From a virus: DNA of 64,000 nucleotides. The position numbers were made by a program, and so were the translations under genes. Under the pieces are notes generated by a model. The model saw only the letters and a program-made list of their open reading frames with translations, was not told the origin of the DNA and searched no databases. The stretch lies in IMG/VR virus record IMGVR_UViG_3300032242_002636, positions 1 to 64,000 of that record; one strand, written 5' to 3'. Shown piece after piece: positions 3,200 to 53,424 of the stretch; the first letter of the stretch is position 1, and each line of letters begins with the position of its first letter.

Positions 3200-3396
3200 T
3201 ACACGAATTTAACCATCCTATACCAGTAGTAACTCCATTAGGTGATGCTTATGTGATTTATGTAACTCATAGTGGAATGTTTGAAAATGATGTGTTCACT
3301 GTTGCTCTTTGTGAAGATGGTCAGATAAGACATTTTGCTAGTGATCAGATCAAAATGTATATAAATGCAACCTTTGGTATAGGAAAAGGTAAATAA
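3196..3396 (+). CDS. hypothetical protein
   Basis: 66-aa ORF with ATGA overlap to the upstream gene. Confidence 0.65.
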   Translation: MIHEFNHPIPVVTPLGDAYVIYVTHSGMFENDVFTVALCEDGQIRHFASDQIKMYINATFGIGKGK

Positions 3397-3400
3397 TAAT

Positions 3401-3709
3401 ATGAATAAAAAAGATTTAACCTCATTAATGGAAGCATATGATACTTTGGCTACACCAAATGAACAAAATGCTACCTCTACAGAACTCTCAACAGTTGCCG
3501 ATGTAACAACACAGACAAGTTCAGAAGGCGATACACAAGAAGAAAGAAAGAGTATGATTGATTCCAACCTTAAGACTATTGGGCAACATCTTTCAGAAAT
3601 CGAACAAGCTATAGGACAAGGACATGAAGTAGAGCCTTGGATGGAAGAAAAGATTGCAGTTGCAACAGATTCAATAGTTAGAATCGCTAATGCAATTAGA
3701 AACCGATAA
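3401..3709 (+). CDS. small late protein with KD-type leader, putative internal head protein
   Basis: MNKKDLTSLMEAY leader; TAAATA at 3390; helical C-terminal domain (PWMEEKIAVA). Confidence 0.7.
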   Translation: MNKKDLTSLMEAYDTLATPNEQNATSTELSTVADVTTQTSSEGDTQEERKSMIDSNLKTIGQHLSEIEQAIGQGHEVEPWMEEKIAVATDSIVRIANAIRNR

Positions 3710-3845
3710 AGATCCAGAAACTAAAGCTAAACAACTTCAGGAAGTCCTAAAGGCAGTAGGTGATAAACTCAGAAGTGATCCCATTCGTCTAGAGGCATAT
3801 AGAAAATTTAAAGCTAATTTTCTAAAGAGAAGATATATTGGTTAA
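3690..3845 (+). CDS. small hypothetical protein (51 aa, not in track)
   Basis: MQLETDKDPETKAKQLQEV...RRYIG* fills the gap. Confidence 0.4.
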   Translation: MQLETDKDPETKAKQLQEVLKAVGDKLRSDPIRLEAYRKFKANFLKRRYIG

Positions 3846-4358
3846 TTTTTTAATTCTGTATCTCTTATTATAAGATGATCTTTTGGTGTTTTTAGTATTT
3901 CTACCACAAAAAGTTTCGGTCTGAGAGTGACAATTAGGACAAAGCAATCTCAAATTTGATGGGAAATTATTATCAGAATTACCATCTATATGATCTACAT
4001 GTAAAGAAATTTCTTTATCCTGCCAATTCGATAGTTTACAAATTTCACACTTATATCCTTTTTTTTCACTTAAGTACTTTCTTAAAGTTTCTGAATGACA
4101 ACTTTCTCCGTTTTCTATTCTTTTTGTTGTATCGGTTTCGAATCTATATCTGCCACAACATTTATTACTGCAAAATTTTCCGTTTGATGATTTAACATGG
4201 TAAACAAACTCTTTTTTACATTGTAAACAAATAGATTCTTTACCTGTTTTTTTCCTTTTAGGATATTTCGAACCATTTAATTTAGCTGCACAAGATCTAT
4301 TGCAGAATTTTTTAGCATATTTGTTTGTTATTTCTTTATTACATGTTGCACATTTCAT
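3822..4358 (-). CDS. HNH endonuclease with N-terminal Zn-ribbon repeats (putative homing endonuclease)
   Basis: CxxC..FCxxxC repeats; CEIC...HVDHIDG...N...NLRLLCPNCH. Confidence 0.88.
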   Translation of the reverse strand: MKCATCNKEITNKYAKKFCNRSCAAKLNGSKYPKRKKTGKESICLQCKKEFVYHVKSSNGKFCSNKCCGRYRFETDTTKRIENGESCHSETLRKYLSEKKGYKCEICKLSNWQDKEISLHVDHIDGNSDNNFPSNLRLLCPNCHSQTETFCGRNTKNTKRSSYNKRYRIKKLTNISSL

Positions 4359-4409
4359 ATTAATACTTACAATAGTCTGTGTACATATTCAAATAGTCTG
4401 GGTTTTGAT

Positions 4410-4437
4410 TTGACATTTGTATTATATATGTTAATAT
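4410..4437 (+). promoter_or_regulatory. sigma70-type promoter for tRNA pair
   Basis: TTGACA-16 nt-TAATAT. Confidence 0.65.
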
Positions 4438-4453
4438 ATAAATATATAAACAT

Positions 4454-4527
4454 GGGAGGTTAGTTTATCGGTAAAACGCTTGGTTTACATCCATGAGTGA
4501 GTGGTTCGACTCCACTACTTCCTACCA
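4454..4527 (+). tRNA. tRNA-Val(UAC)
   Basis: cloverleaf, anticodon loop TTTACAT, GGTTCGACTCC, 3' CCA. Confidence 0.88.
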
Positions 4528-4535
4528 CTTTAATA

Positions 4536-4612
4536 GGAACTGTAGCTCAATTGGATAGAGCATTTCGCTACGGACGAAAAGGTTAGAGGTTCGAGTCCTC
4601 TCAGTTCCGCCA
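4536..4612 (+). tRNA. tRNA-Arg(ACG)
   Basis: GGAACTG/CAGTTCC acceptor, TTTCG-CTACGGA-CGAAA, 3' CCA. Confidence 0.95.
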
Positions 4613-4618
4613 AAATAT

Positions 4619-4647
4619 TTGACAAGTATAAAAATAAGTGATATAAT
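4619..4647 (+). promoter_or_regulatory. consensus sigma70 promoter, leaderless
   Basis: TTGACA-17-TATAAT; ATG 6 nt after -10. Confidence 0.85.
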
Positions 4648-4653
4648 AGGAAA

Positions 4654-5172
4654 ATGTCTTCGTATATTTTAACTCCAGAAATAATTCAAATATGTGAAGA
4701 GTTTGCTGAAAATTGTTTTCCTACAAATAGGATACAGTACACAAAAAGAAATCAAACCAATCCTGAAAAAATAAAAAAAGATATTAGGATTGGAAAAATG
4801 GGAGAATTTGCTGTTTATAATTTAATGTTAGAAAAGAAGGTTAAGAACATCACTAAACCAGATTTAAAGATTTATTATGAACATAATAAGAGCTTTGATT
4901 CTGATTTAAAATGTGATAACTATAATCTTCATGTAAAATCACAATGTCTAGAATCTGCATCAAGATTTGGAATAAGTTGGACATTTCAAAAAAAAGATCC
5001 TATTGTTATCAGACCATCAATTTATGATTATTTTATAGGTACAATAGTTGATGAAAAGAATAAAAAAATAGAAATCAAGCTTTCAAAACCAGTTAAAAAC
5101 TTAATTTTTGGTGAACCTGTTTTAGATATTCTTAAGAAAACAAAAATTTGTGTATATCTAAAAGATAATTGA
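4654..5172 (+). CDS. hypothetical protein, possible PD-(D/E)XK nuclease fold
   Basis: GKMGEFAV...D..SD....LHVKS pattern. Confidence 0.55.
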   Translation: MSSYILTPEIIQICEEFAENCFPTNRIQYTKRNQTNPEKIKKDIRIGKMGEFAVYNLMLEKKVKNITKPDLKIYYEHNKSFDSDLKCDNYNLHVKSQCLESASRFGISWTFQKKDPIVIRPSIYDYFIGTIVDEKNKKIEIKLSKPVKNLIFGEPVLDILKKTKICVYLKDN

Positions 5173-5196
5173 CATTTATAAAATTTCATCTATAAT
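5169..5196 (+). promoter_or_regulatory. sigma70 promoter, leaderless
   Basis: TTGACA-16-TATAAT; ATG at 5203. Confidence 0.8.
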
Positions 5197-5202
5197 ATAA
5201 GA

Positions 5203-5475
5203 ATGCCAACTATTAGAATTCCAGTACCTCTTAGAAAGATCACAAACGATCTAGAAGTTATATCAATAGAAGGATCTACTATTGGTGAAGTCTTAATGAT
5301 GCTTTGTTCAAGATATCCAGAATTATATGATAGGTTATTTGATACAGATTCAAATGTTCGTAGATTCATTAATATATTTCTTAATGATGAGGACATTAAG
5401 TTTCTTAAAGATCTTGATACAGAAGTTAAAGAAACTGATGAAATTTCTATAGTTCCAGCAATAGCAGGAGGCTAA
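5203..5475 (+). CDS. MoaD/ThiS-family ubiquitin-like protein
   Basis: beta-grasp pattern, FINIFLNDED, C-terminal IVPAIAGG di-glycine. Confidence 0.92.
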   Translation: MPTIRIPVPLRKITNDLEVISIEGSTIGEVLMMLCSRYPELYDRLFDTDSNVRRFINIFLNDEDIKFLKDLDTEVKETDEISIVPAIAGG

Positions 5476-5478
5476 TTT

Positions 5479-5829
5479 ATGAAGAAAGTATTAAAACCAG
5501 CAGAAAGAGAAGAAGCGGCTTACTATTCCGATTTCACAGGAAAGCCTCTTAGTCAATGTAGACCAGAAGTTGATCTTAAAATGTCTTTTGGTTATGAATC
5601 AAAATATGATGGAGCACGTTTTACTCTTCATTTATCAGATGAAGATGCTGATCAGATTTTAAAGTTTCTATCTACCAAAATTTCTAATGATTGTAGGAAA
5701 GAGATACAAAAGAATCTAGAGCAGCTTGATGTTCAATATGATGATGCTATGGATTCTCGTGCGTGGGGAGAGTGTGATTTACTCCACAACAACAGAGAAG
5801 TCTATAAGAAACTTCTTAACCTTGAGTAA
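5479..5829 (+). CDS. hypothetical protein
   Basis: 116-aa ORF co-oriented after the MoaD-like gene. Confidence 0.65.
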   Translation: MKKVLKPAEREEAAYYSDFTGKPLSQCRPEVDLKMSFGYESKYDGARFTLHLSDEDADQILKFLSTKISNDCRKEIQKNLEQLDVQYDDAMDSRAWGECDLLHNNREVYKKLLNLE

Positions 5830-5836
5830 GTAGTTC

Positions 5837-6751
5837 GTGCAGTTTAACGACTATTATAAAGCCAGTAACATCAATGAATGTACTTCTGTTGGTATCTCAA
5901 TAGAAGGTAAGGTTATTTTAACCAAGAACAGAGATCGTACATATTATCCTAGAATAAAAATTGTTAGAGAGTTAATAAATGGACTTGAAGTAGCCTATAT
6001 GTATGATGAGGATACTGACTATTCAGAGGGAATGAATGAAGCTCATATCGGTATTTTAAATACTACTCTTCAAGGTAAAAAAGATGAAAATGAAGGTAGT
6101 AGTAAAAACAAGGGAAAACGTCTTAGAAGATTAAGTGGTGATGGTCATAAAATTAGAACTGCTTTAGGATATACTGATCCTGAAAAGGTTGTAAAATCAT
6201 TAGATCTATTTGATAGAGGTCTTGGTGGTCATACTACTGTTGCATATGAGAATGGATTTATTTCAATTGAAAAGTTAAAATTTGGAAAACCAGTTATCAA
6301 AAAATATGATAAAAATGGTGTTATCGTAAGAGCCAATCATGGTATTGCATATCCAGATCAGGGATATCAATTTGGCAAAGATAGAGAGTCAACACTTTCC
6401 AGAGTATTTTGGGCTACCAAAGAAGCAAGACTTGCTATCAGTCCAGAAGATTTATTAAACAAAATGAGAGAACACCATCAAGGAGTTCATGGTTATCTTG
6501 AACCATATAGAACCAATTATAAAGTATGGACATCATCACAGATACTTTTAAATGTAACTGATTTACAAATGATATTTGTAGTTGATGAAAATGCTGATTT
6601 TATTGGAATTGAAGATAGAATTCCAAAAGGACATACACCTAAAATTGATATACAAATTCAGAAGTTAGAAACAAAATTTGTCACCAGAGATGCAAACTAT
6701 AAAGGTGACGAAAGAGAAAATACAGAAGATACTACAAATTTTAGCTTGTAA
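5837..6751 (+). CDS. Ntn-hydrolase (Cys nucleophile; peptidase C45/C69, choloylglycine hydrolase-like) with 14-aa propeptide
   Basis: E|CTSVG...ILTKNRD, EGMNE, RANH, S..R motifs; GTG start after TAAGTA. Confidence 0.75.
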   Translation: MQFNDYYKASNINECTSVGISIEGKVILTKNRDRTYYPRIKIVRELINGLEVAYMYDEDTDYSEGMNEAHIGILNTTLQGKKDENEGSSKNKGKRLRRLSGDGHKIRTALGYTDPEKVVKSLDLFDRGLGGHTTVAYENGFISIEKLKFGKPVIKKYDKNGVIVRANHGIAYPDQGYQFGKDRESTLSRVFWATKEARLAISPEDLLNKMREHHQGVHGYLEPYRTNYKVWTSSQILLNVTDLQMIFVVDENADFIGIEDRIPKGHTPKIDIQIQKLETKFVTRDANYKGDERENTEDTTNFSL

Positions 6752-6776
6752 TTCTTAAATAAATATCATATCATAT

Positions 6777-7376
6777 ATGGATATGAATCAACATTTACGT
6801 CAAGAAACGGTTTTGGTACTCAATAGATGCTGGCAAGCAATTCATGTAAAAAGTCCAGCAGAAGCGTTGTCGATGATGTATGATGATTCTGCAACAGGAT
6901 TGAATATCATAGGAAATGATTGTATGGTTCCTCTTCGTTGGACTGATTGGGTGAATCTTCCTTATGATGAAAATGACTTATATATTAAGACTGTTAATGG
7001 AAGTATTAAGATTCCAAAAGTAATAGTTCTTTCCAAGTTTGATAAGGTTCCTAGAAAGCGTCCTAAATTTACTACAAGAAATGTTTGGATTCGTGATAAC
7101 GGTACTTGTCAATATACAGGCAAAAAGCTTAATCATAGTGAGGGAAATATTGACCATGTACTTCCAAAGAGCCGTGGTGGTGTTACAAGCTGGACTAATT
7201 GCGTATTAGCGCATAAAGAAGTAAATGCTAAAAAAGCAGATAAGACTCCCGAAGAATCAGGTCTTAAACTTCTTCGTAAGCCTTCAGCACCCAAGGATAT
7301 GCCTGTTACTTTTTACATTAGGAATAAACATAATATCAGAGAATGGGAAATCTTCCTTAAAGATTTTACAAATTAA
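6777..7376 (+). CDS. HNH endonuclease (McrA-like)
   Basis: VLVLN..WQAI, RDNGTCQYTG, IDHVLPKSRGG..SWTNCV...N..K. Confidence 0.9.
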   Translation: MDMNQHLRQETVLVLNRCWQAIHVKSPAEALSMMYDDSATGLNIIGNDCMVPLRWTDWVNLPYDENDLYIKTVNGSIKIPKVIVLSKFDKVPRKRPKFTTRNVWIRDNGTCQYTGKKLNHSEGNIDHVLPKSRGGVTSWTNCVLAHKEVNAKKADKTPEESGLKLLRKPSAPKDMPVTFYIRNKHNIREWEIFLKDFTN

Positions 7377-7379
7377 TAT

Positions 7380-7808
7380 ATGGAAAAAAAACCTAATAGA
7401 TTATCATGGGAAGAATATGCATTAAAGATTGCTGAAGTAACGGCTCTTCGTTCTGAAGATCCTTATATGAAGGTAGGATCTTGTGTTCTTAATTCTGACA
7501 ATAGAATCATTGGTGTAGGATATAATGGTCTAGCTGCTGGTAAACATGTTACAGATGAATTCTGGAGCGATAGAGACCAACGTAGGAAGTATATGATACA
7601 TGCTGAAGCCAATGCTCTTTCTCTTATAGATCGTGGACAAGGTGTTCTACTTGCCTGTACTCTTCTCCCTTGTAGTTCATGTGCTACTTTAATAGCTGGA
7701 CACGCAATCAAAAAGGTAGTTTACAGAGAGACCTATAAGAGAGACGAATCAGCCTTAGAAATTTTTGATTTTTATGGTATCAAGTGTGAACAACACTTGT
7801 GGAGTTAA
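7380..7808 (+). CDS. dCMP deaminase
   Basis: HAEANA and PCSSC Zn-binding motifs, GYNG. Confidence 0.92.
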   Translation: MEKKPNRLSWEEYALKIAEVTALRSEDPYMKVGSCVLNSDNRIIGVGYNGLAAGKHVTDEFWSDRDQRRKYMIHAEANALSLIDRGQGVLLACTLLPCSSCATLIAGHAIKKVVYRETYKRDESALEIFDFYGIKCEQHLWS

Positions 7809-7810
7809 TA

Positions 7811-8314
7811 TTAAACTCCAGCAGCAGTATATAAACGATAGAGAACATCTAAAGAAGAATTAAGATCTTCTCTGTTTATTATACTGTTAATGTGATCAAG
7901 AGTAGGAACATCATTAACATCCATATTGGCAGTTTTTCTGATAAAGTCTTTTAACTTTATAGGATCTACCTTATGGTATTTGAAAGGTGATGGATTTGTA
8001 AGATCAAGATCAAATTCTAATTCTACATCATCAATTAAATCTTTAATAGCCTGTCTATCAAGACCAACATGAATTCCTCTAAGTTTTTTTAACTTCTTAG
8101 GAGTTTCAATTTCATCTTCTTCTTGCTTGTAATTTTCACCTTTCATAACATTTTCAATGACATTATCAACGGTGCGTCTATTTTCCTTTACAAGCTTGGA
8201 ATATGGTGAATTTTTTAATAGAAAGGATTCCTCTACTGTAAGCTTCTTTCCAAAAAAGAAATGTTGTTCTGCTAATCTTTTTAAATATTTTCTGTTTTTC
8301 ATATTATATTGCAA
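7811..8314 (-). CDS. hypothetical protein, third gene of the AAA-vWA operon
   Basis: overlaps the AAA gene stop. Confidence 0.65.
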   Translation of the reverse strand: MQYNMKNRKYLKRLAEQHFFFGKKLTVEESFLLKNSPYSKLVKENRRTVDNVIENVMKGENYKQEEDEIETPKKLKKLRGIHVGLDRQAIKDLIDDVELEFDLDLTNPSPFKYHKVDPIKLKDFIRKTANMDVNDVPTLDHINSIINREDLNSSLDVLYRLYTAAGV

Positions 8315-10001
8315 ATTCTCCTAATTGTTCAAATACACCACCATCAGGATTTTTATCTGACTTTGGCTCATTGATATCTGCCTTGGTTGCTGGATCATAT
8401 GTACCATATTGTAAGAAGGCTATAAAAAGTCTCTTCTGTACTTCTGGGAATTGACTTAGAATACCTCTGAGTAAGATACCAGCCCATTCAATATTTGTTC
8501 TGGCTAATACTTTGGCAGCACCTTCAAATATCTTGAATACCTGTGGATCACTATTGATGTGATCATTTAGGAATTTAACTACTTCAGCTTCGTTCATTGT
8601 ATCTTCATCTAATTCATCAAGATGAACACCACTATTAACAAGTTTGTTTGCTGCTGTTCTTAGTCTTGATTTGATATTATAAATAATTTGTCCTAGTTTA
8701 GCTGTTTTAATAGTACCTCTATCTTTCTTTCCGAGATCCTTTTGTTTTAATACTTCATCAAGATTGAAATTCTTAATTTCATCTACCCAACTCATGAAAG
8801 CAGTGACCCATTTTCTACCAGTGATTTTTGCACCTCTTTCGATAACATATTTTTCAAAGGGATATTCAGGTTTTACACCACTTTGAATTGCTTTTTTATA
8901 ATCCTGAATTGCCTTTTTATACATCTTTGAAAATGCAACGAAAGCACGAGGAGAAGCAAATGGTCTTTGTTCAGATTGAATATCGGTTAGATTTTCTGTT
9001 GTGTAGAAATAATCATCTGGATTTTCCTTAATAAAGTTAATGACTCTTTCATCAACACCAACACTTTCTGCCCAATCACACCATCCATCAGGATCTACTG
9101 TTAAAATACCAATACCACCTGTCTGTCTACCTAAGAAGGCAGCACTAAGAGGTTCTGAATCAACACCTCTACCGGGGATGTTTGATGCTGCTACTATTGC
9201 AAGTCCTTGTGAAAGCTTGTCATCGGCTACTGTTCTCTTCTGAATAAGCTTGAGTAATGCACTTCTTACATCAACAGTACCTAAGTTAACTTCATCCAAG
9301 AAAATGAATCCTTCTAGATTCTTTCTTGTAATCAGATAAAGTTCCATTCCCTTTACATATTTCTGATAACCAGCTTCAGCCTTTCCTTGTTCAGGAAGAC
9401 CTTTAATATCAAGACGATCAAGTTCTGTAGCAGTTAATTCTAATACTACAAAATAGTTTTGTGGATTGTTTAATACTTCTAATTTCTTTTGTTCATCAAC
9501 TTCAGACCAATCCACATATTCTCTAACAGAAGAACCATTCTCTTCTGGTTGGTTTGCGTCAAACTTCTGTGTAGCAAAACTATAGTCACTTGGCTTTATG
9601 TATTCTCCCTTTGTTGAAGATCTTGCAATCTGTTCTGCAAATGATCTTACAGTATCACTCTTACCAATACCGGGATCACCAAGAATTAAAAGAGGTTCTT
9701 TTGTTACGAAAGCAGCATTGATTGCAAGATGTAGTGTTTTATATGACCATGTATCAAGATTAGGAGCGTCTGCAAGTGCCTTAGAAGTACCTAAATCTCT
9801 TTTGTATCCTGCTCTGGAAATAAGATCCAAATCTTCCATATCATCGGTTTCGTTAGGAGTTTGTTCAAGTGCTTTTAAATTACCACCAGCCATTTGATTA
9901 GCTTCCTGATCACTTGCAGCTTCTTTGAGAACTACTATATTAGAGAATACTTTGCTATATTCTTCCATTAAATTTTCTAAATCTTTATTCTTGATTGACA
10001 T
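8304..10001 (-). CDS. MoxR-type AAA+ ATPase with KD-type N-terminal leader
   Basis: Walker A GDPGIGKS, Walker B FLDEVN, AASN sensor, SPR motif. Confidence 0.85.
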   Translation of the reverse strand: MSIKNKDLENLMEEYSKVFSNIVVLKEAASDQEANQMAGGNLKALEQTPNETDDMEDLDLISRAGYKRDLGTSKALADAPNLDTWSYKTLHLAINAAFVTKEPLLILGDPGIGKSDTVRSFAEQIARSSTKGEYIKPSDYSFATQKFDANQPEENGSSVREYVDWSEVDEQKKLEVLNNPQNYFVVLELTATELDRLDIKGLPEQGKAEAGYQKYVKGMELYLITRKNLEGFIFLDEVNLGTVDVRSALLKLIQKRTVADDKLSQGLAIVAASNIPGRGVDSEPLSAAFLGRQTGGIGILTVDPDGWCDWAESVGVDERVINFIKENPDDYFYTTENLTDIQSEQRPFASPRAFVAFSKMYKKAIQDYKKAIQSGVKPEYPFEKYVIERGAKITGRKWVTAFMSWVDEIKNFNLDEVLKQKDLGKKDRGTIKTAKLGQIIYNIKSRLRTAANKLVNSGVHLDELDEDTMNEAEVVKFLNDHINSDPQVFKIFEGAAKVLARTNIEWAGILLRGILSQFPEVQKRLFIAFLQYGTYDPATKADINEPKSDKNPDGGVFEQLGEFAI

Positions 10002-10039
10002 ATTATCTATTATTTACACTTATATTTACAAAATTTACG

Positions 10040-11839
10040 TTAATATTTGATATTAACTTCTACAACTCTTCCTGCATATTTTTCTAATATATCTGTTTTA
10101 CCACCGGGAGTGATCAAATATAGAATTCTATTCTGTTCTACTTTTGGTATGGAAGGATTTTCTTCTGTATGACCATCAGTAAAATATATAAGACCTTCTA
10201 TTTTCTTAATTTGCTTAGAATCTAAATATTGTTTAACACAGCTTAAATAAGTTCCTCCGTCATTTCTTATCTTCATTTTACCCAATTCTGCCTTAATCTT
10301 ATCAAGACTCATGGTTTTACTGTCGATATTAGTCTCTGTATAAACATCATCCATCCAGAAAAGAACCTTTAATTTTACGGTTTTTCTACTTGATACGATT
10401 GATGCTACTTCATTTAAGAATGTATGAATCTGATTTGATGATATAGAACCACTAGTATCAATAGCCACAATAAGGTCTAACTTGTCTTTTACAAGCTTTT
10501 CACTAGGCATATAGGTACTAGCACCCACCCAATAACGAGAACTTGGTCTTCTCCAATTCTGTTCCATAGTAGGAAGACCTCCTACGAAATTTCTTAATAA
10601 AGATTTCCAATCTGTTTTTGTTTTTAAAATTTCCTTTTTAATGAGTCCACCTGTTCCGCTTCCTGCACCTGTTCCACGACTAGCTGAACCCGGATTTTCT
10701 CTTAAAGTCTGATCATATGCTTTTTGTATTATGTCAGTAAGATCCTTTTCCTGTTGATCTAGATCCTTTTTAGAATCTGTTTCATTAGGTTCATATCTTT
10801 CATCGTTATTTGGTGCTTGTATAGGAGTAGGCTTCTTAGGCTTTTTTTTAGCTTCGGTTTCCTTTTGTTCCTCTGGTTTTCCACCACCGCCTCCACTACC
10901 TTCGCCTTCTTGCTCACTCTCACCGCTTCCGCTTCCCTTACCTTTGCCCTTTCCTTCTCCCTCACCTTCACCTTCACCTTCACCTTCTCCCTCACCTTCG
11001 CCTTTATCTCCCTTGCCTTTTCCCTTGCCTTTGCCTTCCTTATCACCAGATTCTCCCTCTCCCTCTCCCTCTCCCTCTTCCTCCCCTTCACCTTCACCTT
11101 CACCTTCAGAATCGCCCTCACCTTCCTGCCCCTCTCCTTCGCCCTCTTGTTCATCCTCTTCACCAGTAGGATCAATAGGCTGATCGAACTTTTCTGAAGA
11201 TTCAATATCATCCTGAACCTTGTCAGGATCTTTCTTTTGCCAATTTTCAATGAAAGTATACATCTTTTCTGCTGTAAAATCAGTAATATCCACATTACCA
11301 TATTTTTCGATACGCCATCTTCCATCTGTTCCTTTTCTTGGTAATAGTGCTCTAAAATCATCACTATCAGGAAGCTTAAATCCATCTTCTGAAAGATCTC
11401 TATTGATAATATAATCTGTAGCTACATTCCATAGTTGATGGTTTCTTGATCCTTTTCTGAAAAAGGATAGACCAACAACATGACCGCATTCATGAACTAA
11501 AACTGCTGTAACTCCATCTTGATCAAGATTTTTTGTAGCAAAAATTGGATTGATATAGATATTTCCTATAGCATCAACAGCCATAGTATCGACATCATAA
11601 GTCATTACTGTCTTTAATGTGTTTAAAATTCTCCAATAGAAAGGGAAAGTCTTCTGGAGAACATATCTAGAACGAGCCAATCTAAGATCAAGTTCTTTGA
11701 AAGTTTCATCGTCAATAGTAGGTGCATTCTTTTCCTTTTGCTCCTTTATAAGTCTTTTGGGCTTTTGTTGAATACGATTTTTTTCTATAACCGAAAGGTA
11801 TCTTTCGAAAATCTGATTCATGTCCTTATCGTATATCAT
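10040..11839 (-). CDS. metallopeptidase (HExxH)-vWA protein (DUF2201-like)
   Basis: [21 protein letters not shown]; Gly/Glu linker; MIDAS DTSGS, GGT, FTDG. Confidence 0.88.
10880..11165 (-). repeat. low-complexity (Glu-Gly)n/(Lys-Gly)n coding repeat
   Basis: tandem GAAGGT/GAGGGA hexamers. Confidence 0.85.
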
Positions 11840-11907
11840 ATTACCTATTTATCAGATTTAAATACTTTTACACTAAATAATAGATATTTTTTGGATAAGT
11901 TATTATT

Positions 11908-12483: not shown

Positions 12484-12484
12484 T

Positions 12485-12682
12485 CTAAGCTGTTATAATT
12501 GTAAATTTAAAAAGAAATAATCCGTGAGATTTTCCTTTAGTTAATTCTTTTTTAGCACTTACGATTAATTTATTTTTTGCTAGTAATAGTCTTTTCTGTT
12601 CTAATGCAGAATCTGCTTCTTCTGGAGTTCCAAAGAAGCCGCTCCATTTAATTACGTTGCTATCGTATTTTGGAACATCCAT
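12485..12682 (-). CDS. small hypothetical late protein
   Basis: 65 aa; TAAGTA upstream within a hairpin loop. Confidence 0.55.
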   Translation of the reverse strand: MDVPKYDSNVIKWSGFFGTPEEADSALEQKRLLLAKNKLIVSAKKELTKGKSHGLFLFKFTIITA

Positions 12683-12730
12683 ACATATAATACTTAATAT
12701 ATGTATGATACTAGTTTTCTAGAAAAAAAA

Positions 12731-12817
12731 TGGTGGGCAGAGAAGGACTCGAACCTTCGATGTCATTTAAGACGGGAAATTTACAGTCTCCTGCAATAGC
12801 CACTATGCGATCTACCC
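12731..12817 (-). tRNA. tRNA-Tyr(GUA)
   Basis: GGGTAGA/TCTGCCC acceptor, GGAGA-CTGTAAA-TTTCC, long variable arm, CCA. Confidence 0.93.
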
Positions 12818-12828
12818 ATTATAAAATT

Positions 12829-13104
12829 TTAATCTTCTTTTAAAGCTTCTTCGAGAAGAATGTTGAATGTATCATTGATGGTACAATCATTATCCAAAGA
12901 ATGTTTAATAAGAAATAAAAGAAGTTCTTTTGGATATTCATCTAATTCAACATCAAGCTTCTTCCATTTTCTGAGAAAGACAGAACCATCTTCCTGAATC
13001 TCCCATGTAAACTTATCACCTTTGTTAAGACCATACTCTTGCATTTCCTCATCGGTAAACTCAAGGTATGCTTCTTCTCTAGTTTTGATTTCTTTATATT
13101 TCAT
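12829..13104 (-). CDS. AbrB/MazE/SpoVT-like DNA-binding protein
   Basis: YLEFTDEEMQEYGLNKGDKFTW..EDGSVFLRK swapped-hairpin pattern. Confidence 0.65.
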   Translation of the reverse strand: MKYKEIKTREEAYLEFTDEEMQEYGLNKGDKFTWEIQEDGSVFLRKWKKLDVELDEYPKELLLFLIKHSLDNDCTINDTFNILLEEALKED

Positions 13105-13110
13105 TTTTAT

Positions 13111-13139
13111 ATATTAACATTATGACCTAATAATGTCAA
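13111..13139 (-). promoter_or_regulatory. sigma70 promoter, leaderless
   Basis: TTGACA-17-TAATAT; ATG 6 nt downstream. Confidence 0.7.
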
Positions 13140-13512
13140 CAAATTCTTTTGGAAGAACTACATTTAAAGGATATCCTTCAAATAAAGGTGCAATATCTTC
13201 TTCTTTATAAGAAGCCAAACCACATCCTATTTTTGTTACAAGAAAAGTAAAGTCAGGATTTTGTTCTGCATAAATAAGAAATTCATTAACATAATCTTTA
13301 ATCTCTATTAAATCCAAAGTTTTAATAACATAGTCTTTGGTAGGTATGGCATAGGTTTTTCCTTGATGACCAACGCCAATTCCCCATACTGCACCGAATC
13401 TATCAAATGCAAGTTTGGCTGCTCCTGCTCCGTGTATTCCAGCTTCATTAGAACCGAATACAAAGATTTCATCATTTTCTAGATGTGATATATTGTTAGG
13501 TGTAAATCTCAT
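13120..13512 (-). CDS. A1S_2505-family phage protein (macrodomain-like)
   Basis: FVFGSN..GIHGAGAA..A, TYAIPT, FLVTKIGCGLA; ATG 13512 preferred over TTG 13524. Confidence 0.75.
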   Translation of the reverse strand: MRFTPNNISHLENDEIFVFGSNEAGIHGAGAAKLAFDRFGAVWGIGVGHQGKTYAIPTKDYVIKTLDLIEIKDYVNEFLIYAEQNPDFTFLVTKIGCGLASYKEEDIAPLFEGYPLNVVLPKEFVDIIRS

Positions 13513-13602
13513 ATTTTTTGACAATATCTGGATGATGTTTAATACGATCTATTGTATATACCAATTTTCATTCCTATATACTATAGGAAATAACCAAAAA
13601 GA

Positions 13603-13845
13603 TCAAGAAGTTTTTTCTACTCTTTTTAGTTTTGTGTAGTATTTAGGATCTTCAAACAGATGATCCATAGCAATTGTTTTTGCTGTTTCTTCGTCTTGAG
13701 TATGCTCTCTTTCTACCTCAAGACCCGCATTTAATTCGCTCTGAAGCTCTTCTAAACTTACATTATGCTTAGTAGCAAGGCTCTCAATAGTCTGACCTTT
13801 TGCCAGACCATTTAAAACATTTTCTACTAAAGTATTGAACTTCAT
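13603..13845 (-). CDS. DUF5661-like small protein
   Basis: GLEVEREHT....A..IAMDHL.EDPKYYTKL. Confidence 0.75.
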   Translation of the reverse strand: MKFNTLVENVLNGLAKGQTIESLATKHNVSLEELQSELNAGLEVEREHTQDEETAKTIAMDHLFEDPKYYTKLKRVEKTS

Positions 13846-13856
13846 AAAATTACTTA

Positions 13857-14102
13857 CTAAAATTCTATCTTAAAATTAGTATATGTTCTATTATTTAAGT
13901 TTTTATCTGTTTCTTTTACTACTTGACCAGTTAGGATTAATCCTAACTTTTTGAATAAAGTCAGTTTATAATTTTCTTGTAAATGTTTATTAATAACATC
14001 AATATTAGGATTATCTACATAACCTTCCTGATTGGGTTTGGCTGTTTGTGCAGAACAAACACCAATCAGAAATAAGAATATTATGCTTCGCAGGATTTGC
14101 AT
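13857..14102 (-). CDS. small exported/membrane protein
   Basis: signal-peptide-like IIFLFLIGVCSA. Confidence 0.5.
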   Translation of the reverse strand: MQILRSIIFLFLIGVCSAQTAKPNQEGYVDNPNIDVINKHLQENYKLTLFKKLGLILTGQVVKETDKNLNNRTYTNFKIEF

Positions 14103-15757
14103 GTCATAATTGAACGAGCAAGTTCCTTTGCTGGATTGGTTGATCTTTGATAATAGAGACTCTTAATACCCTGTTCCCATGCAAAAATGATAAGTTCATT
14201 AACAGCCTTTGGTGGTGTTCCAGCAGGAATAAGCATGTTTAAACTCTGCCCCTGATCAATATACTTTTGACGAGAAGCAGCCTGAATAATAATTTCCTTC
14301 TGAGAAGTCTCTTCAAATGTCTTAAAAACATCTTTCTCTTCTTGGGTGAGGAAATCAACATGCTGAACCGATCCACTATGCTTGAGAATGTCCATCCAAG
14401 TGTCATCATCATTCTTACCTTTTTCTTTTAAGAGCTTCTTGAGATAGGGATTCTTATATGAGAACTTTCCTTTGGCAAGATCCTTAACATAATAGTTACT
14501 ATTATTTGGTTCAATAGACGGACTAACCTGACCTAAGATAAATGAGGATGACGTTGTAGGAGCAACAGCAAGTGTAGTAGTATTTCTGCGACCATAACCT
14601 TTAAGAAGTTCTGGTTCACCAATTAATTCGGAAAGTTCTTTAGTTGCTTTGTCTGCTCTTTCACGAATGGTTTTCCAAATGGTAGTGTTTAGAAGTTTTG
14701 CTTCCATTGATTCAAATGCGATCATCTTTGATTGGAGAAGGGAATGCCACCCAAGAACACCAAGACCTAAAGCACGATGACGCATAGCAAACTTTCTAGG
14801 AGCTTCCATAAACTTCATACCATCAGTCTTGTTGATGAATTCTGACATAACAGCATCCAAGAAATAAATCATAGTCTCTACTGCATCAGTATCTTTCCAC
14901 TCTTCCCATCTCTCTAAATTCATTGAAGATAGATCACAAACAAATGATTCATCATCACTATTTGGAAGCATGATTTCTGTACAAAGATTTGATTGAGTAA
15001 TCTTTAATTTCTTATCCTTATAAACTTGTGGTGCTTGATTGTTTACATTATCGGTAAAGAAAATATAAGGATAACCAGACTCAAATCTCTTCTTGAGTAC
15101 CAATCCCCAAATTCTTCTCTTCTCTTTGTCACCATCAAGCATGGACTTCATCCAAGCATCAGTAATAGTGACACCAATTGAAAGATCTTGGATCTCGTTA
15201 CCTTCACCACGAATCTTTAAAAACTCTTCAATATCACCATGATCAATTGGAAGATAGGCTGCGAAAGATCCACGACGAACATTACCTTGCGATACAACGC
15301 TCATAAGCTTATTATAAAGCTCCATGAAATGAATTGATCCAGTAGACTCACCACCAGATGAAATCTCCGTTCCTCTTGCTCTCAAGTCACCAAAATAAGC
15401 AGAAGTACCTCCACCATTCTTTGTCATGATTCCAACTTCAGCAACCTTCTCAAGAATTCCTGCCATTGTGTCAGGAATATGAGAACCAAAACAAGAAATA
15501 GGAAGACCTCTTTTGCGACCAAAGTTTGACCAGATAGGAGAAGCTAGAGAATAAAATCCTCTGTGCATATAACCTTCAAACTTTTTTGCAAACTTTGTAT
15601 CACCTGTAAACTCTACTAAAAGTTTCTGTGCAGTTTTTGCAATATCAGAAATTCTCTGTTCTGGTGTTTCACCTTCTAACAAATATCCTCTTTGAAGGAA
15701 TTTTCTTGAATCTTTGTTAAGCCAATAAATCTCTGATTGATGCGTTTCGTTACTCAT
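14081..15757 (-). CDS. nrdA: ribonucleotide reductase class I alpha subunit (no ATP cone)
   Basis: ISCF, SNLCTEI, APTTSS, KSLYY, C-terminal CxxC. Confidence 0.95.
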   Translation of the reverse strand: MSNETHQSEIYWLNKDSRKFLQRGYLLEGETPEQRISDIAKTAQKLLVEFTGDTKFAKKFEGYMHRGFYSLASPIWSNFGRKRGLPISCFGSHIPDTMAGILEKVAEVGIMTKNGGGTSAYFGDLRARGTEISSGGESTGSIHFMELYNKLMSVVSQGNVRRGSFAAYLPIDHGDIEEFLKIRGEGNEIQDLSIGVTITDAWMKSMLDGDKEKRRIWGLVLKKRFESGYPYIFFTDNVNNQAPQVYKDKKLKITQSNLCTEIMLPNSDDESFVCDLSSMNLERWEEWKDTDAVETMIYFLDAVMSEFINKTDGMKFMEAPRKFAMRHRALGLGVLGWHSLLQSKMIAFESMEAKLLNTTIWKTIRERADKATKELSELIGEPELLKGYGRRNTTTLAVAPTTSSSFILGQVSPSIEPNNSNYYVKDLAKGKFSYKNPYLKKLLKEKGKNDDDTWMDILKHSGSVQHVDFLTQEEKDVFKTFEETSQKEIIIQAASRQKYIDQGQSLNMLIPAGTPPKAVNELIIFAWEQGIKSLYYQRSTNPAKELARSIMTCKSCEA

Positions 15758-15829
15758 AAAATTGATATATCTATCTTATCAAATTACTGACGAATAGCAA
15801 TCAAATTATAAATTTATTTTTATGAAATT

Positions 15830-16147
15830 TTAGAAACCAATGTTGGTATCATCTCCACCTTCGTATGAACCACCAGATGAGAAACTACCAGATAATTTAT
15901 CATTTCTATATAAACTACTATCTTTAAAAGATTTAGCAAATGCATCAATTCTTTTTTCGATGGCACTGTGTTGATCATACATATTCATATCGCTTCTTGT
16001 TGCGATTTCTTTTATCTGGTCGATCATTAACTTTGCTTTAGTTTCAAGACTGCTTAAAAAATTTTGAGTTGGCTGATCTATTTGGTCTTCTTTTAATAAA
16101 ACTTTTTTAAAAGCTTCTTCTAATAAAATTGTATCTTTATTTCTCAT
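15830..16147 (-). CDS. small late protein with KD-type leader
   Basis: MRNKDTILLEEAFKKVLLKE; TAAATA at 16154-16159. Confidence 0.7.
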   Translation of the reverse strand: MRNKDTILLEEAFKKVLLKEDQIDQPTQNFLSSLETKAKLMIDQIKEIATRSDMNMYDQHSAIEKRIDAFAKSFKDSSLYRNDKLSGSFSSGGSYEGGDDTNIGF

Positions 16148-16176
16148 ATTTAATATTTACCAAAAAAAAAACATTT

Positions 16177-16893
16177 TTATGAAATTTTTAATTTTTCTTT
16201 TCTTTTAGCCCAAGCTAGTTTCATCTTTTCTTTGGTTGATTCTTTATGCTTTTTACCAAACATATTATTATTTTCACCAGAATTAACATCTTTTAATTTC
16301 TTTCTGGTTTCTTCAGAAATTGAATTTTTCTTATAGAATTCTACCATTCTAAGTCTTTGTTCTTCTTTTGTTTTTTCGTTCCAATATCTTTTGTTGAATT
16401 CTTTTCTTTGTTGTCTTTGTTCATCTGAAACCCAAGGTAAACCTTTTTTTCTGCGAGTTTCTACCATTTTTTTCCAAGACTCTTTATTTCTTTTCTTTAA
16501 AGCTTCTTTCATTTTTCTTATGGTTTCTTCTGATTTTGGTTTTCTCATTTTATTTTTGGTAGCTTCGGTTAATCTATAACTTCCTTTGTTTACAAAGTTT
16601 TTGCCACCATTATGTTTGTTGAAAAATCTTGGATTTTCAGCAGCATTTACTTTCATTAAGAATCTTGATTCATATAATAAAGTTTCTTCTGATGTTTTAA
16701 AATGTTTTATTTTTAATATTTCAAATGCAACTAATCCATCTTTCTCTATTAAATCTTTAATGACTTTTGAAGTGGTTTTATAACCAGCTTCGGTCATTAA
16801 ATTTGAGGAATCTGCGGAAGCATTTATTTTACAACCAGCATAATATTTGTTGGATAGTTTATGTTTTATAATATAAAAATACGGATTTCCCAT
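16177..16893 (-). CDS. free-standing GIY-YIG-type homing endonuclease with NUMOD3 motifs
   Basis: YFYII...KYYAG, E and N(K)H catalytic region; GENNNMFGKKH..ETK.KM repeats. Confidence 0.8.
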   Translation of the reverse strand: MGNPYFYIIKHKLSNKYYAGCKINASADSSNLMTEAGYKTTSKVIKDLIEKDGLVAFEILKIKHFKTSEETLLYESRFLMKVNAAENPRFFNKHNGGKNFVNKGSYRLTEATKNKMRKPKSEETIRKMKEALKKRNKESWKKMVETRRKKGLPWVSDEQRQQRKEFNKRYWNEKTKEEQRLRMVEFYKKNSISEETRKKLKDVNSGENNNMFGKKHKESTKEKMKLAWAKRKEKLKIS

Positions 16894-16925
16894 ATTTATA
16901 CTTACTTCACTAGACCAGTGGAATA

Positions 16926-17897
16926 TTAAAATAATTCAGATTCATCAAAACATTGATTCTTTTTTGCGTATTCTGTTGGACGCTGGTGGAAAAAATCGGT
17001 CATGTTATTGCCAAGTAGTTCTTCTTCGAACCATTTAGTTTTACTTAATAGTTCCTTATCAACTTCAAACACAGGCTTGAATTTAATTTGAATTAGAGAA
17101 TCGTTGATACGATTTTTAATAAACTCTTTGAGAATAGGAGCAGTTAAATTTTCTTCTTTAATTCCATTAACCATCCAATCGACAATTTCTGATTCAGACT
17201 TAAATGCTTCTTTTGCTTCATGAGCAATCTTAGCTTCAAGTTCCTCATCAAATAATTCTGGATACTCTTCTCTAATTGTATTAATGATTCTAGTGCCAAC
17301 AAGACCATGAATCTGTTCTTCGTTACGAGTATATTTTACTTGTTGATCTGTGTCTTTAAGAACGTTCTTAAAACGAGCAAACCAATTGATGACATAAAAT
17401 TGTGAAAACAAACTAACATTCTCAACAAACAATGTGAATAAAATCAAAGCATAGAGATATTGTTTCTTAGAATCCTTATAAAATCTGTGAGTATATTTTC
17501 TAAGATATTTCACTCTTCCTTCGATCCAATCTAGCTTTAAATTCTTTTCAAAAATATCTTCAAGACCAAGAGCAGAAATTAATCTTTCGTATGCATTATT
17601 GTGAATAACTTCAACATTTGCCATTACATATCCAAGATCCGAAAGTGATGGATGGGGAAGATTTTCTCCAAGCTTTGCCCAAAATGTTTTGACTGCAATT
17701 TCAATCTGACCAATTGCAGAAAGAGTACGAATGACAATTTCTCTTTCTTGATCATTCAAATTTACTTTGAATTGTTGAACATCAGATTTAAAATTAAATT
17801 CTTTGTCTGTCCAAAAGCCATTGTGCATTGCTTCGATGAATTCTTCTGTCCAAGGATAGTTGTTAGGTTTACGGCTTATTTGTTCTTCGAATATCAT
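16926..17897 (-). CDS. nrdB: ribonucleotide reductase class I beta subunit
   Basis: FW, EVIHNNAY, ENVSLF, EEQIH di-metal ligands, C-terminal DFF..RPTEY. Confidence 0.95.
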   Translation of the reverse strand: MIFEEQISRKPNNYPWTEEFIEAMHNGFWTDKEFNFKSDVQQFKVNLNDQEREIVIRTLSAIGQIEIAVKTFWAKLGENLPHPSLSDLGYVMANVEVIHNNAYERLISALGLEDIFEKNLKLDWIEGRVKYLRKYTHRFYKDSKKQYLYALILFTLFVENVSLFSQFYVINWFARFKNVLKDTDQQVKYTRNEEQIHGLVGTRIINTIREEYPELFDEELEAKIAHEAKEAFKSESEIVDWMVNGIKEENLTAPILKEFIKNRINDSLIQIKFKPVFEVDKELLSKTKWFEEELLGNNMTDFFHQRPTEYAKKNQCFDESELF

Positions 17898-17924
17898 AAA
17901 ATTGTACTTCTATTTACAACAATT

Positions 17925-18332
17925 TTATGATTTTCTTTGACGTTTGACAACTCTTTTATTTTTATTTTTTTTGTATTTTCGTTTTCTCTTCTCCATCAAA
18001 CTTTTATATAATTCTGCTTTATATAGTTTATTTGAAAGATCTCTCAAAAAGCGTGTTGTATCTAATAAAGATATGTTATTTATGAGACGAGATTCGGTGT
18101 ATATTACTTTGGTTTCACTCCAAGAAGGATATAGGTAATGGACACATTCATGATATGCGGTTCTTAAAAAGTCTTTGCGATGATCAAATTCTAAAATTTC
18201 CATCTCATAATCACAAATTCCATGACAGGCTCTCATTTTCCTAAAAAGGAAGAATTCAGGCGGTTTTCTCTTTACCAACCTTAAGCACTGGTTATAAATG
18301 GATGCTAGATCCCTTTTAGATAGTTTTTCCAT
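17925..18332 (-). CDS. small zincin-like (HExxH) protein
   Basis: TAYHECVH. Confidence 0.55.
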   Translation of the reverse strand: MEKLSKRDLASIYNQCLRLVKRKPPEFFLFRKMRACHGICDYEMEILEFDHRKDFLRTAYHECVHYLYPSWSETKVIYTESRLINNISLLDTTRFLRDLSNKLYKAELYKSLMEKRKRKYKKNKNKRVVKRQRKS

Positions 18333-18406
18333 AGATACCTAATAATTATAGACAAAAACAATATCATGTAAAGAACTTTTTTCCTTTACTCTGACAAAAA
18401 TATTTC

Positions 18407-18434
18407 TTGCATATAGAGTTGTTTTAGGTATACT
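18407..18434 (+). promoter_or_regulatory. sigma70 promoter, leaderless
   Basis: TTGCAT-16-TATACT; ATG at 18441. Confidence 0.65.
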
Positions 18435-18440
18435 AATAGG

Positions 18441-19673
18441 ATGTTCTTGCAGAAAAAAGATAAAATACAATCACTGAGGATTTCTGGAAATGAAGATCCT
18501 TTTTATAATGTCATTAATGACAACGAGTTCCCTATAAGGAGATATATCGAAAAAAAATATGGAACTTCTATAGGATTGTTCTATACAGATGATGAATATA
18601 CAGGTGATATATTCAAGTTTTTGATGGATAATTCCAAGCTTCTTTCATATACCTCTGTAGGAAAGCTTTCCTTGGTTATAAAGGATACTTATAGAGGAAT
18701 GAGAGGCGGTACATTTTGGTTTTACTATAAAAACGTATATATTCGCATTTCTTTAAAAGACCAACCAGATGATGTAGAGACGGCATTTGCAAATTCCAGT
18801 TTATCAATTCCTCCGGGTTCCTTAAATGTTTTTACCGAAAGTGAAGAAGAAAAGGAATATAATCCTGATAATAAAATATTTACATTAACCTTTGCAGCAC
18901 CAGTTACAGTTGATAAATTTCCTATTGAAGATTTTGAGAAATTTATTCTTCAGAAAACCAAAGGAAGAGTTCATATCTTTATTAAGAATCAATACGGAGA
19001 ATATGACTTTGAACCTATCAAGTTAGATACAATAAAAGATATGGATCTTGTTTTAAATTATGGTGAAAAGTTCACAGGGATTAATGATATTGTAACTACC
19101 AGATTAAAAGAAAAACCTAGTGGTCTTTATATGTTTCATGGATCACCCGGCACAGGTAAAACTACATATATTAAATATCTAGCAAATATAGTTGATAGAG
19201 ACTTTATTTATGTCCCTACTAACATGCTTGAATATTTTACAACAGATCCTAATAGTCTTTCTATTCTTTTACGCAAACCCAATTCGGTTCTTGTTCTAGA
19301 AGATGCTGAAAAGGCTATTATGAAGCGTGAAGACGGTGGAAGCAATTCTTCTGTATCTTCTCTTCTCAATCTTTCTGATGGTATCATGAGTGATATCATG
19401 AAGACTGCAATTATTCTTACATATAATTGTGCTAAACAAGATATTGATGAGGCTCTTCGTCGTAAGGGAAGACTTCAGATTGACTATGAATTCACTCCTC
19501 TTACTAAGAAGGATGCTATTAGACTTGCAGAAACCTTAAACTATCCAAAAAATTTCATTAAAGAAGAGATTAAAGATTCTATGTCTCTCGCAGACATTTA
19601 CAATCTTCAGACTAAGATTGAATTCCAAGAAAAGAAAGAGAAACATGATCGTGTTGTAGGATTTGGAAAATGA
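18441..19673 (+). CDS. AAA+ ATPase (BCS1-like)
   Basis: GSPGTGKT, LVLEDAE, LLNLSDG, ALRRKGRL, C-terminal VGFG. Confidence 0.85.
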   Translation: MFLQKKDKIQSLRISGNEDPFYNVINDNEFPIRRYIEKKYGTSIGLFYTDDEYTGDIFKFLMDNSKLLSYTSVGKLSLVIKDTYRGMRGGTFWFYYKNVYIRISLKDQPDDVETAFANSSLSIPPGSLNVFTESEEEKEYNPDNKIFTLTFAAPVTVDKFPIEDFEKFILQKTKGRVHIFIKNQYGEYDFEPIKLDTIKDMDLVLNYGEKFTGINDIVTTRLKEKPSGLYMFHGSPGTGKTTYIKYLANIVDRDFIYVPTNMLEYFTTDPNSLSILLRKPNSVLVLEDAEKAIMKREDGGSNSSVSSLLNLSDGIMSDIMKTAIILTYNCAKQDIDEALRRKGRLQIDYEFTPLTKKDAIRLAETLNYPKNFIKEEIKDSMSLADIYNLQTKIEFQEKKEKHDRVVGFGK

Positions 19674-20485
19674 TAAATTTTAATCCTCCAAATTTACAAA
19701 CTCTTATAGAGTTATATGATTCGTTTTCTTCTGTTAGATTTTTTGATAAAGATCATAATTATGAAATTGATGGAGAGAAAGCTATAACTTCTGTTTCTGG
19801 TCTTATAGGAAGATATGAGAAGCCTTTTGATACACAAAAGATAGCGGAGCGTGTTGCCAATAAACAAGGAGTTTCTGTTAAACAAATCATTGAACAATGG
19901 GAATATAACAAAAATTATTCATGTCACAAAGGTTCTGAATTCCACCTTTATGTTGAGAATTTCTTGGAAAGAAGATTTGCTCCTTTGGATAGACAGGCAA
20001 TTATAAATTTTATTAGTGGTAGTGCAGGATATCATAAAGAAGATTTAGAAAAATATTACCAAGAAATGGCTTTGTTTATCAGGAACTTTAAGAATTTCTA
20101 TGATTGGTGGAAACAAGATCATATCCTTATTAAATCTGAGTTTGTAGTTGGTGATAAAAGATCAAAGGTTTGTGGAACTATTGATAACCTTTCCTTCAAT
20201 AAAAAAACCAATGAATTTGCTATCTTTGATTACAAAACAAATAAGAAAATTAATAGGAAAAATGATTATGGAGAAACTTTATTAGATCCGTATGATTACA
20301 TTCCTAAATGCGAATTGTCAAAGTATAGTCTACAGCTTTGGCTTTACAAATTAATCATCGAAAGAAATTCACCATTTCAAGTAGGAGAGTTGGGGATAGT
20401 TTGGGTAGCTGGTGAAGATGATTATGAACTGATTAAACCAGTTGATTATAGAAAAGAAGCTGCACAAATGCTAGAAAGCGTCTGA
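19670..20485 (+). CDS. PD-(D/E)XK exonuclease
   Basis: SVS, GSEFH..E, CGTID, DYKT, YSLQL.LY. Confidence 0.85.
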   Translation: MINFNPPNLQTLIELYDSFSSVRFFDKDHNYEIDGEKAITSVSGLIGRYEKPFDTQKIAERVANKQGVSVKQIIEQWEYNKNYSCHKGSEFHLYVENFLERRFAPLDRQAIINFISGSAGYHKEDLEKYYQEMALFIRNFKNFYDWWKQDHILIKSEFVVGDKRSKVCGTIDNLSFNKKTNEFAIFDYKTNKKINRKNDYGETLLDPYDYIPKCELSKYSLQLWLYKLIIERNSPFQVGELGIVWVAGEDDYELIKPVDYRKEAAQMLESV

Positions 20486-20510
20486 TTGATTTGTAAGTAG
20501 GTCTACATAT

Positions 20511-20711
20511 ATGAATAAACAAGACCTAGTATTATTAGAAAGCCTTTATGAAAAGGTTGTAGAAGAAGCCAAGAAAAAGATAAATCCTTGGGCTGTTTGT
20601 GGTAAGATCGAAAACAAACCTAAAAAGGAAAGATGTGTAAAAGATGTAAAAAAGAGTGCAAAGAAATACGGCAAAAAGATTACATCTAAAGCAGTAAAGA
20701 AAAAGAAATAA
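20511..20711 (+). CDS. small basic late protein with KD-type leader
   Basis: MNKQDLVLLESLYEKVVEE; NPWAVC...KERCV. Confidence 0.7.
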   Translation: MNKQDLVLLESLYEKVVEEAKKKINPWAVCGKIENKPKKERCVKDVKKSAKKYGKKITSKAVKKKK

Positions 20712-25459: not shown

Positions 25460-25529
25460 TCTACCTATAATTATATGTGTCATATCAATTTTCTCAATAA
25501 AAAATGAGTAAATGGATATTGGTCAAAGG

Positions 25530-25535
25530 TAAATA
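25530..25535 (+). promoter_or_regulatory. phage late promoter TAA(A/G)TA (representative copy)
   Basis: same hexamer lies 4-13 nt upstream of the start codon of more than 20 genes, including sheath, tube and terminase. Confidence 0.75.
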
Positions 25536-25547
25536 GTATTATAATTT

Positions 25548-53341: not shown

Positions 53342-53424
53342 ATCAATATAATAACACAAAATCCACAAAAGTCAAAGACCTTTGTGGATTTGTACTGGTT
53401 TCTTTTTTTGGATGCGATTACGAA

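Follow-up and report, generated by a model that had tools for sequence, protein, structure and literature searches.

The window analyzed here comprises 64,000 nucleotides (nt) of a viral genome fragment, positions 1 to 64,000 of IMG/VR record IMGVR_UViG_3300032242_002636. The parent contig is 107,454 bp long, carries 120 called genes, and has a completeness rating of 51%; its DNA polymerase shares ~31% identity with the polymerases of T4-like cyanophages and of Methylophilales phages. Five genes of the window, lying on both strands and named here by the position of their first nucleotide (3401, 10001, 11839, 16147, and 20511; Table 1), encode proteins that begin with a common leader followed by bodies with no detectable mutual similarity. 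The leader is read here, on balance, as a tag that would load these proteins into the phage head in the manner of the capsid-targeting sequence (CTS) of phage T4.

A common leader on five late-type genes

The five N-termini had been singled out in an earlier sequence-only reading, and each was recovered exactly as quoted there. They have in common an Asp at residue 5–7, followed by Leu/Ile, Tyr/Phe, and Val/Leu/Ile at 4, 8, and 11 residues beyond it. The strict pattern proposed by that reading, K-D-x3-[LI]-x-E-x-[YF]-x2-[VL], had four matches in the six-frame translation of the entire contig, each no more than nine residues from the start of an open reading frame; 20511 misses it because its Glu is displaced by one residue. 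A looser pattern, D-x3-[LI]-x3-[YF]-x2-[VLI], required to start within the first nine residues, matched 5 of the 120 called genes, precisely these five, against 0.31 expected from its internal rate (Poisson P ~2e-5, for a pattern chosen post hoc). The motif is confined to gene starts, and no other gene of the contig carries it. No further contig match above 10 bits was found with a profile built from the five leaders. The hydrophobic-x-Glu site that was said to follow the motif occurs 5–12 residues past the conserved Tyr in four of the genes, and 3401 lacks a close one.

The five leaders are not equally typical. When a profile was made from 141 outside sequences only, 16147 scored 42 bits and 20511 scored 20 bits, and the same profile gave only ~5 bits each for 3401, 10001, and 11839. 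Judged by these scores, 16147 and 20511 carry the canonical leader and the other three represent a divergent subtype, tied to the canonical form mainly via orthologues. The divergent genes belong to cargo families that recur in three genomes: this contig, a 49-kb relative (G001), and G002, a record of 202,880 bp that has terminal repeats and is rated complete. For two of them, relatives with more canonical leaders were found, namely the 3401-type body in G002, L039, and P0033, and the AAA protein in G002.

For the two enzymes among the five, the AAA+ ATPase 10001 and the peptidase-vWA protein 11839, the Pfam and PHROG profiles start at residues 50–90, so the leader and the linker behind it are additions. 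The AlphaFold2 model of the AAA protein has a helix at residues 5–15, then a region with a predicted local distance difference test (pLDDT) score <50 that gives way to the AAA core at about residue 86. Among AAA orthologues of 41–90% identity the leader is nearly unchanged and the next ~60 residues are variable; distant homologues of 390 residues (aa) are devoid of the entire N-terminal extension. Together with 11839, this ATPase forms a core of tagged proteins conserved in all three genomes.

Conservation of the leader lies at the level of protein and not of DNA or RNA, because differing codons are used at conserved residues: Asp is encoded by GAT 22 times and by GAC 11 times, and Leu9 by TTA, TTG, CTA, or CTT. 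Codon identity across the leader is 0.60, 0.72, and 0.53 for positions 1, 2, and 3, with the third least conserved. This codon usage indicates that selection acts on the leader peptide.

A TAA(A/G)TA element had also been noted just upstream of all five genes, and it does end 5–11 nt before each ATG. In the contig as a whole TAA[AG]TA, usually after a purine pair, starts 9–20 nt before the ATG of 35 of the 120 genes (chance, ~1%), including those for the sheath, tail tube, baseplate hub, and large terminase (TerL). Replication genes have TTGAC-type and TATAAT-type elements instead, and their -10-like hexamer ends a few nucleotides before the ATG. By the promoter element that they have in common with the sheath, tube, hub, and TerL genes, the five leader genes are classed as late-type. 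Both kinds of promoter hug the start codon: late TAA[AG]TA elements end 5–13 nt before the ATG (mode, 5–6 nt) and σ70-like TATAAT hexamers 4–10 nt before it, with examples at window positions 25526–25547, 52244–53380, and 54530–57140. Promoters placed nearly on the start codon leave little room for a Shine-Dalgarno sequence, and many of the mRNAs may therefore be leaderless or nearly so.

Table 1. Coordinates of the tagged genes and their promoter elements, genes of a second N-terminal family, and leader-bearing cargo with recognizable domains
Feature	Coordinates	Strand	Description
Gene 3401	3401..3709	+	102 aa; divergent leader at residues 1-16; acidic linker and small helical domain; no known family
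TAAATA late-type element of 3401	3390..3395	+	5 nt before ATG
MoxR-like AAA+ ATPase (10001)	8304..10001	-	565 aa; leader at residues ~3-27
Two TAAATA elements of the AAA gene	10011..10028	-	9 and 21 nt before ATG
DUF2201 metallopeptidase + vWA protein (11839)	10040..11839	-	599 aa; divergent leader at residues 1-19; family profiles begin at ~residue 50
TAAATA element of the peptidase gene	11846..11851	-	6 nt before ATG
Gene 16147	15830..16147	-	105 aa; canonical 20-residue leader at nt 16088-16147; no known family
TAAATA element of 16147	16154..16159	-	6 nt before ATG
Gene 20511	20511..20711	+	66 aa, very basic; canonical-type leader at nt 20511-20564; no known family
TAAGTA element of 20511	20494..20499	+	11 nt before ATG
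Second-family gene (window)	13603-13845	-	
Second-family gene (contig)	71988-72263	+	
Second-family gene (contig)	82202-82546	+	
Second-family gene (contig)	83514-84293	+	
Second-family counterparts in G002	109034, 118376, 119680, 176126		
ART-PolyVal ADP-ribosyltransferase cargo			P0067; E 3e-12
LysM cargo			P0063; Pfam support
RHS repeat cargo			Pfam support
GNAT acetyltransferase cargo			
PolyA_pol + HD enzyme, CCA-adding type			L035

The leader and its cargo in related genomes

The contig is collinear with G002 (94 of its 120 genes, mean protein identity 64%), and two of the tagged genes, 16147 and 20511, interrupt this otherwise conserved gene order. The first is inserted between the nrdA and nrdB homologues together with an adjoining NUMOD3 homing-endonuclease-like gene (window 16177–16893, minus strand) that has a TAAGTA element of its own. 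The second is a moron-like insertion, with the same slot in G002 lacking it. The number of leader genes in G001 was at least seven by the first profile and nine by a later, independent one. G002 has 11, most of them preceded by the late-type element and all in one variable arm (182–186 kb plus 1.6–21 kb) far from the head genes. The G002 head module encodes Gp23, a T4_CASP (gp22-like) scaffold, an S77 prohead protease, and Portal_T4; the protease, of 592 aa, is interrupted by an intein (splicing domain). The large terminase of the window (34716–37625, plus strand; 969 aa) probably contains an intein as well, since a LAGLIDADG domain lies at residues 319–370, ahead of the terminase ATPase match.

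Beyond these genomes, the canonical leader takes the form M-[RK]-x-K-D-[QT]-I-L-L-E-x-[AL]-Y-x-K-[VI]-[LFY]-L-K-E. In IMG/VR, 18 leader loci of 28–35% G+C were confirmed after a pattern scan, most with TAAATA just upstream. Among 1.84 billion representative proteins, 163 clusters (≤50% identity) matched a leader profile at E ≤ 1e-3, and in ~145 of the best 150 the match begins at residue 1. At least 19 matches were obtained with a 42-aa version of the leader profile. Tyr occupies residue 13 in 158 of 164 leader proteins, and a hydrophobic-x-Glu ends 5–7 residues past it in 143 of the 164, compared with ~7% of control windows, a frequency that is partly circular because hydrophobic-x-Glu formed part of the search profile. 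The leader proteins are small (median length, 127 aa), and their 155 cargo bodies fall into 117 BLAST components. P0016, P0019, and P0020 have an identical 20-residue leader and diverge completely immediately past K-E. In P0132 and P0154 the leader is present twice, in tandem.

No matches were returned by a single-protein scan of IMG/VR, and blastn/tblastn searches of isolated phages with the AAA protein, the peptidase, one leader, and one basic cargo protein found no close relative and no leader. A full-text literature search for the leader sequence yielded no relevant paper.

The small cargo modules also recombine among themselves. The 3401 body is found in G002 as a protein of 93 aa and is fused to other modules in L039 and P0033; the basic body of 20511 recurs in L028, L039, P0155, and P0170. 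In L039 (116–589) a 3401-like body is followed by a 20511-like basic tail, L028:3001–3333 is likewise involved, and in P0033 a basic motif is joined to a 3401-like body. A 45-residue similarity between P0033 and an 80-aa protein encoded between the protease and the scaffold of G002 is real. P0033 was considered as a link between the leader and the head module, a candidacy weakened by its position, since the gene occupies the variable slot of 20511 and not the head module.

Exchange of leaders on ADP-ribosyltransferase cargo

Few cargo bodies have known domains, and those that do are listed in Table 1. By eye, and with no Pfam match, the cargo also includes leucine-rich-like repeats, a protein with a D-G-H-H-R-W motif, and Cys-rich mini-proteins. 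The most informative family is the ART-PolyVal ADP-ribosyltransferase (ART), whose relatives were collected by a search with the ART body alone, leaving out the leader. In these proteins the mature part always starts at the same point, and the C-terminus is highly conserved. At least five different short leaders precede this fixed junction: the one described above (family 1) in 10 proteins, one of the F-x-x-F-C-x-x-F-L-x-E type in 8, and four other short N-termini, three of them with hydrophobic-x-E; one protein has no leader at all. Different N-termini at a single fixed junction identify the leaders as exchangeable modules, and on ART cargo, as read from these junctions, the family-1 leader stands in for leaders resembling the T4 signal. 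The C-terminus of the same family is of separate interest: in the ART-PolyVal relatives (A8) the last ~30 residues are far better conserved than the catalytic middle, which suggests that the C-terminus holds a second functional module or, possibly, another element for processing or targeting.

A second shared N-terminal family, M-x-K-F-x-x-L-V-x-x-I-L-E, occurs on late genes of the same contig (Table 1). It is conserved in G002 and lies closer to the T4 CTS register than family 1 does. In a 91-aa protein of this family (contig 71988–72263, plus strand) a Gly-rich G-G-A-F-G follows just past the hydrophobic-x-E, and such a stretch, again just past a hydrophobic-x-E, is found in the N-terminal region of the G002 major capsid protein (144152–145624, minus strand).

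Collectively, these data establish the leader as a tag: it is strictly N-terminal, selected at the protein level, linked to late promoters, modular, and swappable with CTS-like leaders.

Capsid loading and its alternatives

Phage T4 is the textbook case of capsid loading by peptide, and only 3 or 4 of its proteins are tagged. Its CTS is an N-terminal peptide of 10 residues that is sufficient to load foreign or unrelated proteins into the head, and the protease gp21 cleaves after L/I-x-E (PMC9026906, PMC8442874, PMC3012670). Within the CTS, targeting is controlled by residues 4 and 7, and processing by residues 8 and 10 (PMC9026906). The leader described here is likewise a short N-terminal peptide on unrelated, fast-changing late proteins that ends in hydrophobic-x-Glu, and its second half, Y-x-x-hydrophobic-hydrophobic-(hydrophobic)-x-E, repeats the T4 layout of Y4, F7, I8, and E10. 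The likeness extends to the machinery and the cargo, with an S77 protease and a gp22-type scaffold (here seen in the relative G002) and an ADP-ribosyltransferase among the tagged proteins, as T4 Alt, which is packaged and injected, is an ADP-ribosyltransferase (PMC5512222). Where the two differ is in scale: there are 5–11 tagged genes per genome and >160 clusters here, with large enzymes among the cargo.

Two other delivery systems invite comparison. In phiKZ-like and SPN3US-like giant phages the propeptides of inner-body and ejection proteins are cut at S/A-x-E by a gp21-like protease (PMC9026906, PMC5694885). Those phages, too, have many head-internal proteins processed after Glu by a T4-related protease, and their ejected protein load is large, but the propeptides are long, there is no single portable 20-residue tag, and genome type and capsid are different. 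Polyvalent proteins and MuF-fused effectors are delivered with phage DNA (PMC5512222); they overlap with the present cargo in effectors (ART-PolyVal and metallopeptidases) and in being made late and used early in the next cell, and peptidoglycan attack is one activity listed for early-phase effectors of this kind (PMC5512222). Their delivery involves fusion to a head structural domain or a giant polypeptide, whereas here separate genes each carry a small tag.

Against this background, the interpretation that we favor, with rather more confidence than doubt, is that the leader is a head-loading tag similar to the T4 CTS, possibly cut off by the head protease. A tagged gene would then be a cassette consisting of a late promoter that nearly touches the ATG, a leader of ~20 residues forming a short helix with conserved Asp5, Leu9, and Tyr13, a hydrophobic-x-Glu site, in many cases an acidic disordered linker, and any cargo. 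The leader would dock the new protein onto the prohead scaffolding core, and the cargo would be enclosed as the gp23 shell forms. A T4-type S77 prohead protease might then cut after the Glu and free the cargo within the head, to be released into the next host with the DNA. A more ambitious proposal, that the leader marks the full protein set packed and injected by an uncultured T4-like clade (>100 fast-shuffling families, including the AAA+/vWA-metallopeptidase pair, the ADP-ribosyltransferase, and the CCA-adding-type enzyme), is a serious possibility that stops a little short of being probable.

Several observations weigh against head loading by a T4-type mechanism. The contig stops just short of the head module, and the S77 protease, the scaffold, and gp23 are all absent from it, so protease and scaffold are seen in relatives only. 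With ~20 residues against 10, the leader is about twice as long as the T4 CTS, includes an extra conserved K-D-x-I-L-L-E block, and has no alignable sequence similarity to it; for these reasons it is not called a member of the T4 CTS by sequence. The canonical leader is not clearly amphipathic and has a low hydrophobic moment, which does not support a classic amphipathic helix. When the G002 capsid protein is aligned with T4 gp23, no Glu falls opposite the Glu65 cut site; what the protease of this lineage recognizes is therefore assumed rather than derived. Large ATP-dependent enzymes are unusual capsid cargo. To these are added the partial circularity of the hydrophobic-x-Glu count and the low scores of three of the five leaders in the independent profile. 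Finally, the true CTS could be the second N-terminal family, leaving family 1 with some other role, although the like-patterned leader on eight ART cargo members argues that both families do the same job. The portable address tag put forward by the sequence-only reading survives in part. Its N-terminal position, late promoters, hydrophobic-x-Glu, >100 unrelated bodies, and exchangeability on ART cargo all speak for it; the divergence of three of the five leaders, a second family more like the T4 CTS, and a doubled length with no sequence similarity to that signal do not.

The alternatives account for parts of this evidence. The leader could be a docking helix for another common partner, neither cleaved nor packaged, that co-localizes late accessory proteins in the infected cell; candidates for the partner are an assembly factor of the phage, a site on the tail or baseplate, a hub protein of the host, and the AAA+/vWA-peptidase pair, which itself bears the leader. 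A conserved helix followed by a disordered linker and cargo would suit any docking peptide, that pair is the tagged core common to all three genomes, and the more CTS-like motif family resides in the same genome. Such docking is nevertheless unlikely, since it would leave unexplained the positioned hydrophobic-x-Glu, the sharp break in similarity past K-E, and the exchange with other hydrophobic-x-E leaders on ART cargo, and since cargo such as LysM would have no target inside the producing cell. An export or localization signal, directing proteins to the envelope, periplasm, or cell exterior, would suit the cargo expected to act beyond the cytoplasm, namely LysM, RHS repeats (both by Pfam), and the leucine-rich-like repeats (recognized by eye and lacking a Pfam match). 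In a test for Sec, Tat, and lipoprotein signals, however, the leader had neither a hydrophobic core of ≥10 residues nor a twin-arginine motif and its consensus was charged throughout; it is also short, the hydrophobic moment of its canonical form is low, and the AAA+ ATPase, the CCA-adding-like enzyme, and the ADP-ribosyltransferase need cytoplasmic substrates. Export is thus very improbable.

Smaller still is the likelihood that conservation serves the nucleic acid, either as a translation enhancer of nearly leaderless late mRNAs or as a hitchhiking recombination cassette. Because promoter elements end 5–11 nt before the ATG, initiation could depend on the 5′ coding region, and the cassettes are clearly shuffled; yet the codons at conserved residues vary, with third positions the least constrained, and the sheath, tube, and TerL genes have the same promoter geometry and no leader. 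Finally, proteins of AT-rich genomes commonly start with stretches rich in Lys, Asn, and Asp, and with three leaders at ~5 bits the resemblance might be put down to chance or composition. This explanation is scarcely credible given the excess of the motif at N-termini in the contig, the 163 clusters matched nearly always from residue 1, and the conservation of the leader in AAA orthologues, and it is already contradicted for 16147 and 20511.

What emerges is a tag that is different from and longer than that of T4, that heads >160 protein clusters in uncultured relatives, and that can trade places with other tags on a single enzyme. Were it a head-loading signal, the proteins carried into the next cell could be read from sequence alone, which would point to new counter-defense and takeover functions. 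The leader would also add a second natural tag to the means of packing foreign proteins into T4-like capsids. Should the leader mark the full set of packed and injected proteins, leader-guided mining would offer a ready catalogue of new host-takeover and antidefense proteins, and the interchangeable leader types would amount to a general modular code for capsid loading in T4-like phages.

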